From: Eledone cirrhosa | Lineage: Eukaryota | Assembly: GCA_964016885.1 (NCBI GenBank) | Contig: OZ024743.1 | Coordinates: 342,674,001 to 342,738,000 of the forward strand | Length of the DNA stretch: 64,000 bases | Direction of reading: 5' to 3' | Part shown: positions 37,493 through 52,391 of the stretch, piece after piece | Layout of the letters: each line of letters begins with the position of its first letter | Numbering within the stretch: position 1 is the first letter of the stretch | Program-made: the position numbers and the translations under genes | Notes under the pieces: model-generated | Database searches by the model: none | Told to the model about the DNA's origin: nothing | What the model saw: only the letters and a program-made list of their open reading frames with translations

Positions 37493-37675
37493 ACGAAGGA
37501 AATGTGGTAAGGAACCAGATGGACCATAACGCACCAAAGTACTCAATACTTAGGGTAATAGGAACAAGTATGACCCCGACGGCAGAGGTCAAGCCGTTTC
37601 GACGGCTAATTCTGTATCCAGAATTAGCCGTCGAAACGGCTTGAGCTCTGCCGTCGGGGTCATACTTGTTCCTAT
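37493..37675. mobile_element. Short palindromic element in (TA)n derived from the pLTR at 36530-36670
   Basis: 57-bp arms 37558-37614 / 37619-37675 with 1 mismatch, plus a 65-nt unpaired tail. Confidence 0.75.
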
Positions 37676-38159
37676 ATATATATATATATAGTTTTATATA
37701 TATATATGCATATGTGGACGGACACACCCACACACACATATATATATATATGTGTGTGTATGTGTGTGTGTGTATATATATATATATATATATATATATA
37801 TATATATATATATATATATATATATATATATATATATATATATATAAATCGGAATTAAGAGTATATATATATAGATAGATAAATATACACGGATGTATAT
37901 TTATCTAATTTTCACAGTTGAAAATTGCAAACTTGACTGTCACCACACATTATGAACATGAAGATTGCGAAAGCATGAAAGTACTTGTTCAATTAACACT
38001 TAAGATTTAATATTCTATCATACTATTTCATTCTAATACCATTATAAATGTTAAAGGATTGTAAATAAAACGAGTAAATCAGACAAAGTTGGAATTCCTT
38101 TTATTAATATATATATATATATATATATATATATATTGTAATAATAATAATTATTATTA

Positions 38160-38341
38160 TTATTTTTACTTTTGGCACAAGGCCAGCAATTATCCCAGTG
38201 TATTACTGCTACTTTATTTTATCGACCCCGTAAGGATGAAAGGCAAAGTTAACCTCGACGTGATTTGAACTTAAACCATAAAGGGCCGTTAACTCTTTGC
38301 TGCAAAGCTTGGCGTCCGATCCTCTACCGATACTGCCAATT
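38160..38341 (-). mobile_element. tRNA-SINE
   Basis: Family consensus match. Confidence 0.8.
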
Positions 38342-38744
38342 AACTAAACTATAATAGAGTAAGAAGTGCGGGACTACATCCAGAATAAATTTTTTTTATC
38401 CCGTTTGTAAAATAAGTTGGATTACTTTGAATAAATAATGAATGAATATTACATAATGTATGTACTGAATTTCGTAACTAAATTTCGTATTTATAAATAA
38501 TTTAAAATTGACTTCTTTTCAAAGTTACAAATTTCTACACTTCCGGTATATTATCGCCACCACCACCACTTTAACTACCATATATATAGAAAGAGAGAGT
38601 TTGTGATGAGAGAGATAGAGTTATTATTATTTTCTACACGCTGGCGCGTATGATTGTGCACATACATCTATATGAATGAGTATATAACTATTATGAGTAT
38701 ATAACTATAATCGCGCAAACACAAACTTATAAAAATACACCCTC

Positions 38745-39100
38745 ACATTCAGATAAATACACATACTTTCACACAAAAACATTCACACATACATTTACAC
38801 AAAGACACGCATGTAGTCATGATAGTGTTCGGTGAATTGGAAACGGGAGGGTAAAACAAGTATAACGTTTTATTTATTTATTAACAATACAGTTTAACTC
38901 TTTTTTTTAAACTCATTTGTATAAAAATTTAATATAATGCTTACAGAACGAAAACGCAAACAAATATAATGTATACAAAGGAAAGGAAAACGCAAAAATT
39001 ACACAAGCACGTAATACCCACATCTAAGACCACATAGGCTGGATAATGTAGTTAGCTAACAGAACACCGTAGCAAAAGAGTCACTAACTGTGACGTCCCA
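38745..39100 (-). mobile_element. Internally deleted tandem copy of the same CRE 3' end
   Basis: 38745-39030 repeats 39105-39417; 39030-39100 is made of pieces of 39690-39722 and 39800-39834. Confidence 0.7.
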
Positions 39101-39104
39101 TTCA

Positions 39105-39950
39105 CACAAATAGACATACTTTCACACAAACACACACATACATTCACACAAACACACATTCACACATATACATTTACACAAACACACACATAATCATGAT
39201 AGCGTTCGGTGAATTGGAAATGGAAGGGTAGAAGTACAACTTTTTATTTATTTATTAACAACACAGTTTAAGCCTTTTTTTTAAACTCATTTGTATAAAA
39301 ATTTAATATAATAATTACAGAACGAAAACACTAACAAATATAATATACACAAAGAAAAGGGAAAGGAAAAAAAAGAAAGAGAAAAATACACAAGCACGTA
39401 ATACCCACATCTTAGACCCGATAGAACAATATGCAGGCGAAAGAATGAATAGACGAGACGCTACCAGAGCAAAAGATAGCAATGTAGCGAGAAGCACTGG
39501 GAAACCTCTCTAATAATGTTTGAGGCAAGCCAGCACGCTCGCAGCGTTACCTGGGGTAATGACGAGGCTGAGGTGCTGGAACAACCAAGTGCCCTCACGA
39601 GCATCACCAGTTACCTCTGTTTGGCGAGCCGCCAGTGAAGATAAGAACCTCGCTGTCAGTCGCCAGACTCCCCCAAACATCTCGAACGCCACAGGCTGGA
39701 TAATGTAGTTAGCTGACATAACGTGTTATTTTAGGATTTTGTTCCGTTCAGCTGCGGATGCTGTAGCTCTCGCCCTTACCGCTGCATCCAGGATGTAGGA
39801 AGAAGCAAATGAGTCACTAATTGTGACGTCCCAGGTAAGGCACCTGCCTCTTGACCAGCAGCACAGAGTAAGACCGTCATGTCTTTTCCCATCAATTCTG
39901 GACAACCCAAACGGTTCCAAAATTGAGGGGATGTTTGCCCAGGCCAAAAT
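39105..39950 (-). mobile_element. CRE-clade non-LTR 3' fragment with 3'UTR
   Basis: DGKRHDGLTL..W..G..LTWDVT, AAERNK..K, PVAFEMFGG, WLFQHLSL....GNAASVL. Confidence 0.8.
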
Positions 39951-49300: not shown

Positions 49301-49732
49301 TTTTTTCCGTAAATATATTTTTTGCGTGTTATGTTCTTAATCTTAATTATAATATACTTATTATTGTACCTCAATATTTTGAATAATAATGCTCTGTAGA
49401 ATACTGATTTAGTGAGCTGTCTCATAGTATAATATGGTTGAAATAATTTATTTTATTTTAATCCATTTTTATTATATAGATATATATATTGTAGTAAAAA
49501 CTTGGTAAACATTTATCCAATGGGTCAGAACACTCAGTCTGTGAGACGAGTAAAGAGGTACAATAAAATTAAATCACTACAATGGCTGCATAACGCGAAT
49601 ATACACGTTTCATTAGCGCGTTAGGTAACGTCAAATTCTCAATTCCCCAAGTTTTTGATGAATTAACTTCCGGAGTGTCTCATTACCTATAAAACGCCAA
49701 AGAGTAACGAGCGGTAATTAATAAGTCTAAAA

Positions 49733-50029
49733 CAGTCATGGGCAATCTGCGGCCCGCGAAGCTTTCTCAATGGCTCGCCTAAGTCACCTAAGTGAAATCT
49801 TTCTGATTTTTTTACCCCAACTTTTCAGTCGTAATTTATCTTTCTATCATTTTTACGATCGAGGAAAACAACGTGTACGAATTCTGAAGAAACAAATCAA
49901 AACAACCTGAGTTACCACCCTTTTTTTTAATGGGTGCACGAATGTAAATTAGCGCTTGCGCCCCCCCCCCCCCTGATGATGAGCGATATCTCATGCGGCC
50001 CGCTTCTCGTTAAAGGTTGCCCATGCCTG
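49733..50029. mobile_element. hAT (Charlie-type) MITE
   Basis: TIRs cagtcatgggcaa / ttgcccatgcctg; subterminal gcggcccg motifs; perfect 8-bp TSD gtctaaaa. Confidence 0.9.
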
Positions 50030-51694
50030 GTCTAAAATTTAGGTGTTAGACTATTGTAAAGAAACTCTATGTAATGTAAGGGGAGAGAACTTTAGTATGA
50101 ATTAATAAATGGGGCCAACTTATTTATGTTCATAGAATAGACAGTTAATGTAGAAGTTAACGTGAAGAGAAAAGGGTCAAAGCCCAATCAAGGCTCGACC
50201 ATTTCTTTAAAAAGGAATTTGGTTTCGTACGGGCAGCAAGTATTATATCAGCCAGCATACGTGGTTCGCGTCATAACAGTTGGTCTGTTTGTTATGTCTT
50301 TCAAATTGCTTTTATTGCTTATCTTTATATGTGCGTTATTTTTCATAATGTGTACAGAACTGAAAACTTGAAATATAATTTATTGATTTATGGAAATCTT
50401 AGAAGTGACTTCTTTCGTAAAAGTATTTCTTTTCAGCAGCAAATCGTAATAATTTTAAGTTAATTTTATCTTCAAGTAATCATTTAGAAACATTTCTGTT
50501 TAGAGTAAGTCGTTCATTGTAATCTACAAATATTATCAAACGAAACCTTTATTTCTGAAATACTTTCCATTAAAATACAGCAAATATGTATATTAATTGA
50601 ATTAAACACGAATAATATTTCCACAAAATATACTTCATTATATATGACGACCCAGTTTGTCTTTTATATTCTTATTTCATTGTTGTAATTGAATAGGAAT
50701 CAGATATAAACATTTTTTTAATGTCATATTTACTATTTCTTTACAAATCTACAAAATCTAATAGATGCCAAACACGCTAACTGTTTTATTAACAATACAT
50801 TAGATGGTATGAACACAGCATGGCCAATTGGTTAAAAGGTTAGCTTCGCAATGCTAAATTCCCAGGTTCGATCCTATTCCGTGGTATATTGGTCAAGTAA
50901 GTATCATTTACCATAGCCTTGCTTCGGCAAATGCCTTGTGAGGATAATTACGCCGAGATAAACTGATTGGAAGGTTGTCAGATGGACTGTACGTGTAATT
51001 CAAAGAGTTAACCGTGTCATTCTCAATCGTATCGAGAAGTACTTATTGAGGGGTGCACGTATTGAGGGGTGTACTGTTTCGACGATGAGTGTTGCAGTTG
51101 TTCCATCAATGGAGCAGCCGGCTGATGAAATTAACGCGTAAGTAATTGGACACTCCACTCGCACGTATGCCCTTAACAAAATTCTCTGGGAGACTCGGCG
51201 TTACGCAGTGTATAACAAAGTTGGCCATTTGAGTTACAGGTACAATCCATCCAACGGGCTCCCAAACCGTTTCTCTCTACCCAATTTCACTCATAAAGTA
51301 TGGGTCGAACCGAGACTATGGTGAGTCCCATTGCATGGGATTCAAATCCGAAAACTAATGATTTTGAAGCTAACTTAACCATTCACACGGGGATGCCTAT
51401 TTTCTATCTTGTCATGACAAGTCTGCTAGGTCAGGCAGAAGCAAGGTAAATCAGAAGCAACAGATATGTGAGTCATACAAAACCGATTTGGTGTATTGAT
51501 ACGTACAATAATTTTTGCTCGAACAGATTTCATCTGAGGCTGCATAGCAATTAAATCAAATACAAGCCAACAAATGATTCTATAAATAGCAGACAAACCA
51601 AAACTCAATCTACCGTTTTAGAAAATAGTGACATTGTATATGCGTGTGTATCTCTGTTGTGTGTGTGTGTGTGTGTGTGTTTAATATAGAAATG

Positions 51695-51744
51695 GCTTCT
51701 ACAGGACTAGAACTGTTTCATTCAAAGAAAATCATCAGGAAAGC
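51695..51744 (-). ncRNA. Type I hammerhead motif (paralogue of 31670-31714)
   Basis: gctttc CTGATGA ttttctttgaat GAAA cagttctagtcctg TA gaagc. Confidence 0.7.
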
Positions 51745-52189
51745 GGAGTGTCATTGTGATATGGTGGTATATATACGTTTTCTGGTGACAGGGGAAGGTG
51801 GTAATTGGGTTGGGTGGAGATCATTTGCCGATGGATTTAAAGAATGGGGATTCTTTGAAAAAACTATATTAGGATAAAAATACATATTAATACAATGGTA
51901 AAAGTAAAAGGCATTCACACTAAGTACCTATGGACAAACACATACATACTGACAGACACTCATGTTTTCAAGGTTTGTTTATTCTAAGCAAACAAAGGTT
52001 TTTCATTAAGTAACTATATTAACATGCTCTGCTGAAGGATTTATGGTATCAAAGGATGGAGAAGTCTGCAGAAATGGTCAGGTGTATACATGCTCACACA
52101 CACATACACACACAAATATATATATATATATATATATATATATATATATATATATATATATATATATATATATATATATATATATATAA

Positions 52190-52391
52190 AACAAAAAAAG
52201 TGTGGTAAGTAGCCAGGTGGACCATAACGCACCAGAGTACTCGATACTTACGGTACTAGAGTGAGTAATAGGAAAAGAGTAAGGACCCCGATGGCTGAGC
52301 TCCGGCTGTTTCGACAACTAGATCCGAACTGTTCGGATCTAGCTGTCGAAACGCTCAGAGCTCAGCCGTTGTGGTCCTGACTCTTTCCTAT
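52190..52391. mobile_element. Second, diverged copy of the short palindromic element in (TA)n
   Basis: Arms about 52268-52329 / 52331-52391; tail homologous to 37493-37557. Confidence 0.75.

Follow-up and report, generated by a model that had tools for sequence, protein, structure and literature searches.

Endonuclease-bearing (EN+) Penelope-like elements (PLEs) integrate as a characteristic unit which, in the published text available to us, carries an inverted, 5'-truncated pseudo-long terminal repeat (pLTR) and a tail on one side only (PMC3846280; PMC8557442). The accessible parts of this literature (PMC11167929, PMC3846280, PMC4209133, PMC8557442) treat as open how the inverted pLTRs and the tails are formed and whether the hammerhead ribozymes of these elements cut in vivo. 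We analysed a stretch of 64,000 nucleotides of the Eledone cirrhosa genome (assembly GCA_964016885.1, contig OZ024743.1, positions 342,674,001 to 342,738,000; hereafter, the window), with a focus on two short palindromes at window positions 37493-37675 and 52190-52391. These palindromes are probably the shortest insertions of an EN+ PLE of the Hydra clade, and their junctions suggest an origin by twin priming on a single RNA, with run-off of two complementary DNAs (cDNAs) at its 5' end and their joining head to head.

In the twin priming of LINE-1 (L1), the other strand of the target primes at an internal site of the RNA already in use, giving a 5' inversion with a microhomology join. The retroviral minus-strand strong-stop product results from priming near the 5' end of the RNA and run-off at the cap; it is a short, abundant cDNA that must jump for extension. 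Among PLEs, the in vitro work on internal initiation by Poseidon_Ac describes two start sites of the reverse transcriptase (RT) between which the tail lies, together with nicks in both strands of AT-rich DNA and a predicted dimer; in the sections available, Frangieh et al. report that the starts share no homology with the cleaved DNA and that no reads end at the hammerhead cut (PMC11167929). Non-LTR retrozymes, as far as their description could be consulted, are head-to-tail tandem units with whole type I hammerheads (bioRxiv 10.64898/2026.07.22.740005).

Both palindromes, whose coordinates we verified, are embedded in (TA)n and have the same layout, an inverted arm followed by a direct arm with a tail, on the minus strand relative to a longer monomer of the same family. 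The direct part of each is the last 125-139 nt of this monomer (36532-36670, minus strand) and is followed by its own first 57-61 nt, repeated in inverted orientation. We numbered the element from the A at window position 36532 (+1), which places the predicted hammerhead cut after +41, the outer end of the inverted arm at +61, and the end of the tail at +139. The parts of the two copies are:

37492 to 37614, minus strand: tail-bearing arm of copy 1, covering +5 to +139 of the element apart from 11 nt whose deletion is common to a subfamily (from sequence and fold)
37615 to 37616, no strand: junction of copy 1, where arm ends +5 and +3 are separated by 2 untemplated bases (read from the sequence)
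37617 to 37675, plus strand: tail-less inverted arm of copy 1, +3 to +61, abutting (TA)n (arm-arm identity 56/57)
37436 to 37491, no strand: (TA)n target flank of copy 1 (other flank, 37676-37691)
52190 to 52330, minus strand: tail-bearing arm of copy 2, of a second, older subfamily, from the Inr-like A (see below) to the tail end
52331 to 52391, plus strand: tail-less inverted arm of copy 2, equivalent to +2 to +61, abutting (TA)n (arm-arm identity 52/62)
52116 to 52188, no strand: (TA)n target flank of copy 2 (other flank, 52392-52411)

A preliminary description, made from the letters alone, had noted that the copies diverged from each other yet remained internally palindromic, and the comparison bears this out: the arms agree at 56 of 57 and 52 of 62 positions, the copies at 43-44 of 61-62. 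Its other structural remarks also hold. Each copy folds into a single long hairpin with an unpaired tail (65 nt or 78 nt), terminates in TTCCTAT-(AT)n, and has its axis inside loop II of the hammerhead at 36484-36577. The subfamily of copy 2 ends at the matching A of TTAGTT, and the 14.5 kb separating the copies contain no additional match to either. The divergence between the copies is largely inherited from two parental subfamilies (the arm motif of the copy 2 type has 3,154 genomic matches). An assembly artefact was ruled out as the source of the palindromes: the arms carry independent mutations, one flank does not mirror the other, and the ends at +61 and +139 are found again in contigs built from short reads.

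The abundance of these structures was assessed by searching the assembly for exact motifs. A 25-mer of the tail has 26,582 matches (reversed control, 0), and the end of the inverted arm joined to TA has 20,922 (control, 0); the anticipated recurrence beyond two copies is thereby confirmed, and the genome holds about 20,000 palindromic inserts. Our sample consists of the first 100 tail matches, in coordinate order, on contig C1 (104 matches, 100 after removal of overlaps). An inverted arm is present in 77 of them, 76 being minimal palindromic insertions (minis) and one continuing into the open reading frame (ORF); the rest are 11 short copies without inverted arm, 4 short copies joined to a long inverted or ORF piece, and 8 long copies. 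The inverted arm has its outer end at +59 to +64 in all but two of the 77, no inner end lies beyond -5, and both inner ends fall within -6 to +8 in 52 copies. The fold-back points are thus clustered and not scattered, as expected from the earlier suggestion of a stereotyped product of Penelope-type integration. Flanks are (TA)n in 65 of 75 cases on the left and 93 of 100 on the right. The outer ends +61 and +139 are found again in 12 of 18 long loci that we picked, where the inner ends range from -80 to -1212. Short-read contigs from two public runs were used for end positions and for depth (which is not copy number): +1 to +139 has 10-20 times the depth of the sequence just upstream of +1 and hundreds of times that of the ORF. 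No strand-change joint was listed among the contigs, except for one 60-nt contig on both strands. Because the long copies share the +61/+139 outer ends and depth steps up at +1, the mini is the short end of a size continuum bounded at about +1. The minis are the smallest insertion class of a Hydra-clade PLE, not a self-amplifying family.

Two side observations concern the distribution of the family. Minis of the same or of different subfamilies adjoin within one (TA)n tract (L051/L052, L057, L067, L025), such that tracts have been hit repeatedly. In run X5 (organism B), three contigs match the pLTR at at least 99%, one of them on both strands; the family may occur there, at low depth.

The parent element is represented in the window by a longer insertion with the following features:

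36040 to 36670, plus strand: parent pLTR and tail, a 5'-truncated copy from -492 to +139 with 99.4% identity to the full-length element of locus L091
35809 to 36041, minus strand: arm of the longer insertion in inverted orientation, covering -465 to -232 and lacking its outer part
36484 to 36577, plus strand: hammerhead of type I with the U3-A8 variant of the core and a long loop II; cut predicted at 36572/36573 (+41/+42) (from the fold)
36590 to 36592, plus strand: UAU at +59 to +61, putative second reverse-transcription start and outer end of the inverted arms
36670, plus strand: tail end (+139), putative first reverse-transcription start; UAU at +139 to +141 in the full element

Many genomic copies are 99-100% identical to this monomer. 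L091 is a full-length insertion (inverted arm from +61, pLTR, tail, ORF, pLTR, tail, (TA)n), and both it and L092 have a pLTR-ORF-pLTR structure encoding an RT as well as a GIY-YIG domain at the C terminus, with broken reading frames in both. Their frames contain RWR, SDKT, GLYRDDG, CNCPDRSIC, VIY..YIG with one Cys between, CNLC, and CKH, and no CCHH; a Pfam scan of three frame pieces gave a single weak RVT_1 match (E 0.042). The features of the Hydra clade given by Craig et al. in the text available are RWK, DKT, a CxCx5C linker, no CCHH, CxxC/CxH, and a (TA)n target (PMC8557442). The parent has these features, with RWR in place of RWK as one conservative change; GLYRDD, and the placement of CxxC and CxH around E and N, are further traits that it shares with the clade. 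We classify it as an EN+ PLE of the Hydra clade on these motifs and on a by-eye likeness to published Hydra proteins. Hydra-1_Obim, from the same source, has a similar N-terminus and similar RT motifs by eye, and also inserts into (TA)n; in contrast, its listed hammerhead differs in sequence. Two motifs of our pLTR were not found in the text of that supplement (line breaks or cut text could hide them), and the comparison with what the supplement contains indicates that the present element is a different family.

The hammerhead had been called degenerate, which is only partly borne out. Its core, UUGAGAA, is a U3-A8 covariant that folds into the three-helix type I layout, a variant described for PLEs (PMC4209133, as available). 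On the other hand, the fold energy is no better than that of shuffles (z -0.58), and a scan of the window at Rfam gathering thresholds gave 0 matches, hammerhead included. The 5' half of the hammerhead has 4,690 genomic matches.

The junctions between the arms tell whether the palindromes descend from one another. Junctions could be parsed in 18 of 20 copies with a young arm haplotype, and no two of the 18 are the same, which is not the inherited master junction of copying as a unit in the manner of short interspersed elements (SINEs) or miniature inverted-repeat transposable elements. The two arms of a copy, compared by a 5-site haplotype, agree in 33 of the 34 scorable copies (shuffles, mean 13.6 and maximum 23). 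Since the junctions are all different and the arms of one copy are matched, each palindrome was likely formed at insertion and not inherited from a master. These data bear directly on the idea, raised in the preliminary description, of a separate hairpin element, non-autonomous and amplified as a unit; it would be transcribed and copied whole, in the manner of a SINE or a retrozyme. Such an element would account for the very high copy number, the uniform size, and the few junctions that recur. Against it stand the 18 different junctions within one young haplotype, the spread of the recurring junctions over several haplotypes and both orientations, and the continuum with long copies that share the outer ends. 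The minis also lack a complete hammerhead and a retrozyme-type tandem array. Non-LTR retrozymes, as far as described in the text available, are likewise short non-coding repeats that derive from PLEs and are associated with type I hammerheads; unlike these head-to-tail tandems with a complete hammerhead each, the minis are single head-to-head inserts with only its 3' half. We give copying as a unit hardly any credence and regard it as already refuted for the most part, although a minority of minis may have been re-copied.

The position of the axis points to the 5' end of an RNA. Two features of the pLTR lie around it:

36503 to 36510, plus strand: TATA-like box, -29 to -22, inside hammerhead loop II
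36526 to 36537, plus strand: initiator (Inr)-like region; A 36532 is +1, the likely capped start and main axis; A 36528 is a possible second start

By their consensus, TATTTAAA at -29 and TCATTT/TTAGTC at -6 to +4 are TATA-like and Inr-like motifs. Such motifs have been noted together in the pLTR of PLEs (PMC3846280, in the text available). The axis is the Inr-like A 29 nt behind the TATA-like box, and +1 is likely a capped transcription start; the 5' end of the RNA would explain the axis better than the ribozyme does. Because this start falls inside loop II, the half hammerhead would be no more than the portion downstream of the promoter. The 3' end of an intron was ruled out as the axis: the arms begin at the A of AG or 1-4 bases before it, not after.

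The base that precedes A+1 gives additional information on this end. It is T, the parental base, in 12,686 genomic matches, G in 3,253, and A or C in 3,789 (A in 12 of the first 100; A about 450), and T precedes A+1 in all 30 young long loci. Sixteen of 30 G matches have the young haplotype, and in 9 of these 16 the G fits neither the parent nor the partner arm; two of the nine are the arms of one copy, and one is a direct (TA)n-G junction. Copying of the cap adds an extra G in L1, and the extra G observed here likely comes from a cap as well. At one junction (L174), two successive G-AGTCC starts are present, as though the 5' end had been copied twice.

A second class of copies, a minority, begins at the predicted ribozyme cut. 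Genome-wide, there are 611 short palindromes (control, 87). A hand count of the first 49 distinct ones gives 20 in which an untemplated spacer separates two arms that each start at +42/+43; another 4 are blunt and ambiguous, and 9 were joined through microhomology at +39/+41. The young haplotype has 124 strand matches at +42 (about 60-68 loci) versus 2 loci at the control position, +23 to +25. Thirty inverted arms have a base other than G after +42, of which 14 are point mutations and 16 true stops. The partners of the true stops begin at +42/+43 in 8 cases and further 3' in 2, and 3 are without such a partner; the 8 of 16 compare with a baseline of 2 of 77 among copies with an inverted arm (p 5e-6). 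Genomic palindromes that start at the predicted 3' product of C17 cleavage thus form a class, at the level of DNA, that bears on the activity of the hammerhead. With +42 arms paired with +42 partners far above the baseline, this class suggests that the ribozyme cuts in vivo and that a single RNA served as template for both arms; the cleavage could occur in cis or in trans. For this step alone, one may instead invoke stalling of the RT at the base of stem III or deletion of the palindrome tip. Stem III closes at +40, the 4 blunt junctions can be read as +41/+41, and the 9 microhomology joins fall at +39/+41, all of which fit stalling or deletion. We nevertheless consider it unlikely, given that in 20 of the 49 neither arm has the unpaired C at +41 and both start from the predicted 3' product, and that +42 exceeds +23 to +25 about 30-fold.

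The lengths of the arms discriminate between twin priming and fold-back. In the available text of Arkhipova et al. 2013, head-to-head pLTR palindromes of PLEs are read as products of self-priming (PMC3846280), and fold-back priming had also been considered for the palindromes of the window. Here, cDNA reaching the 5' end of the RNA would snap back and copy itself to +61, with asymmetric copies produced by later central deletions. This explains the matched arms (33/34) and the paired +42 stops as well as twin priming does, and it has the published reading on its side. The geometry is compatible with snap-back of a tail-bearing cDNA in only 19 of the 77 copies, because snap-back requires the tail-bearing arm to be longer by one loop. 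The large asymmetries run in the wrong direction: the tail-bearing arm is shorter by at least 12 nt in 16 copies and the reverse is seen in 0 (n=77, p 3e-5), whereas later central deletion should act on both sides. Loops of zero or one base are frequent, and in L102, L127, and L144 a complete inverted arm (+1 to +61) accompanies a direct part from +67 to +80, with almost no duplicated overlap. An extra G occurs on both arms one base apart (L180/L181), and the outer end of the inverted arm is fixed at UAU in short and long copies alike, as would suit a priming site rather than a stop. The junction data disfavour the published self-priming reading for this family, and simple fold-back is, in our judgement, quite improbable. 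Snap-back of stem II was separately ruled out as the cause of the axis, as the minis contain none of its 5' strand.

Twin priming on one RNA would proceed as follows. The endonuclease would nick both strands of the (TA)n target, and each 3' end would pair with a UAU (+139 to +141 and +59 to +61), by 2-3 nt of its TA primer, and prime on the same RNA. Both cDNAs would run to the 5' end of the RNA, +1; the longer one (from +139) would have to displace the shorter (from +61) or would stall on it, often stopping early. The cell would then end-join the two cDNA ends via 0-4 nt of microhomology or short insertions. The +42 ends would derive from ribozyme-cut RNA. The minis, being without the TATA region, would be mostly dead on arrival. 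Long copies that cross +1 without a scar may come from uncut read-through RNA, from a jump via the +1 to +41 overlap, or from a circle (PMC4209133, as available). Two individual loci are of note. In L005, CCTAC replaces CCTAT in both arms and the inverted arm extends about 9 nt further outward, a single case that fits UAU-dependent priming. In L148 (G000:C1:25027867-25030829), an inverted arm from +61 to +2 is followed by a unit from +4 through about 960 nt into the ORF and then by +2 to +139; its direct units share a private variant, and the arrangement resembles a 5' run-off followed by a jump into the same RNA.

That both segments come from one RNA is indicated indirectly by the haplotypes (33/34) and by the pairing at the cut site (8/16 versus 2/77). 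Two separate RNAs held by a protein dimer would also explain the fixed outer ends, the run-off at +1, and the G on both arms, and a dimer is predicted for another PLE (PMC11167929, as available). The one discordant copy among the 34, the mixed arms of L014, and the longer partner in 3 of the 16 cut-site copies are what two RNAs could produce. Independent RNAs would seldom both be cut, and the excess of +42 partners for +42 arms makes priming on two RNAs very unlikely.

Several observations weigh against twin priming on one capped RNA or limit the counts behind it. Below 12 nt the asymmetry of the arms is weak (16 versus 6 at 8 nt, p 0.052; 38 versus 29 at 1 nt, p 0.33), one of the 34 scorable copies has discordant arms, and the partner starts further 5' in 3 of the 16 true +42 stops. 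The control for the +42 class is a single position (+23 to +25). As to the cap, 7 of the 16 young G matches are explicable by the partner arm, the G before A+1 is templated in some subfamilies, and many arms carry 1-4 templated T's beyond +1, so that the 5' end is a cluster and not a point. The second candidate start, A-4, does not repeat the excess of G (23 G versus 77 T in the first 100), with a T-bearing subfamily as a confounder, and among some 57 cut-site junctions listed, about 15 also have an extra G (hand count; G-run slippage is possible). The start at +1 and the cleavage at +41/+42 are predictions from genomic DNA. Finally, the sampled copies all carry the exact tail 25-mer and come from a single contig, and the end positions of 31 of the 77 inverted-arm copies were taken by hand from printed junctions.

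The process works like twin priming but differs from the L1 form: the internal site is fixed here at +61 and variable in L1, and about 55 nt (usually the first 60 nt) are copied twice, whereas the inverted part in L1 is not duplicated. Unlike retroviral strong-stop synthesis, it is target-primed and uses no tRNA primer, no RNase H is shown, and the run-off product is integrated. Like Poseidon_Ac, in the published text available, the element has its putative RT start about 110-140 nt behind stem II of the hammerhead and two starts that bound the tail; unlike it, the element has each of these starts on a UAU, as well as a genomic class of copies that start at the cut site. The published EN+ PLE unit, within the same limits, shares the head-to-head inverted copy at the 5' end, the tail on one side only, the AT-rich target, and the TATA, Inr-like motifs, and hammerhead of the pLTR. 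It differs from the present family in that the mini consists of the 139 nt downstream of the promoter and makes up about three quarters of the sampled insertions, and in that the tail is 78 nt here against 30-40 there. In the literature on PLEs that we found, in which subscription papers are thinly covered, there was no description of twin priming, of a cap G, or of cut-site copies. The layout was already published; new, as far as this literature goes, are the proposed twin-priming mechanism and the cap-G and cut-site classes for PLEs.

Other repeats of the window are given here for completeness. Positions 58863-59181 and 60832-61150 form a 319-nt inverted repeat, 99% complementary, beside (TA)n; it encloses 1.65 kb made up mostly of TA-rich repeat and may be another inverted insertion. 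A longer dispersed repeat occurs several times at about 1700-9400 and 20250-23500, in direct and inverted orientation; its copies are 85-97% alike, and some lie beside (ATT)n. A 186-bp unit in 1.8 tandem copies at 19571-19912, which we take to resemble a SINE, has dispersed relatives, with similar stretches near 37125-37290 and from 38175. Two related non-coding stretches between (TA)n, at 33410-33750 and 34890-35200, are by eye possibly the ends of another TA-targeting element.

For annotators, the mini-element of the window is no family with a master copy, and as an object the palindrome is a by-product of a known class rather than a new kind of element. The tens of thousands of independent junctions in this family discriminate between models of PLE integration. 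If the +42 class stems from cleavage, it is a genomic trace of a ribozyme acting in living cells. More broadly, and with somewhat less than even confidence, we suggest that reverse transcription of PLEs may start near the 5' end of a capped messenger RNA at two UAU sites, in which case the approximately 20,000 palindromes would be integrated strong-stop products and the several hundred +42 copies germ-line fossils of the ribozyme. For full-length copies, a jump from the RNA's 5' end to its 3' end would then be required, through the +1 to +41 overlap left by the 3' ribozyme cut or through a circle made by two cuts. Such a jump would unify pseudo-LTRs, the one-sided tail, and inverted pLTRs in one mechanism.

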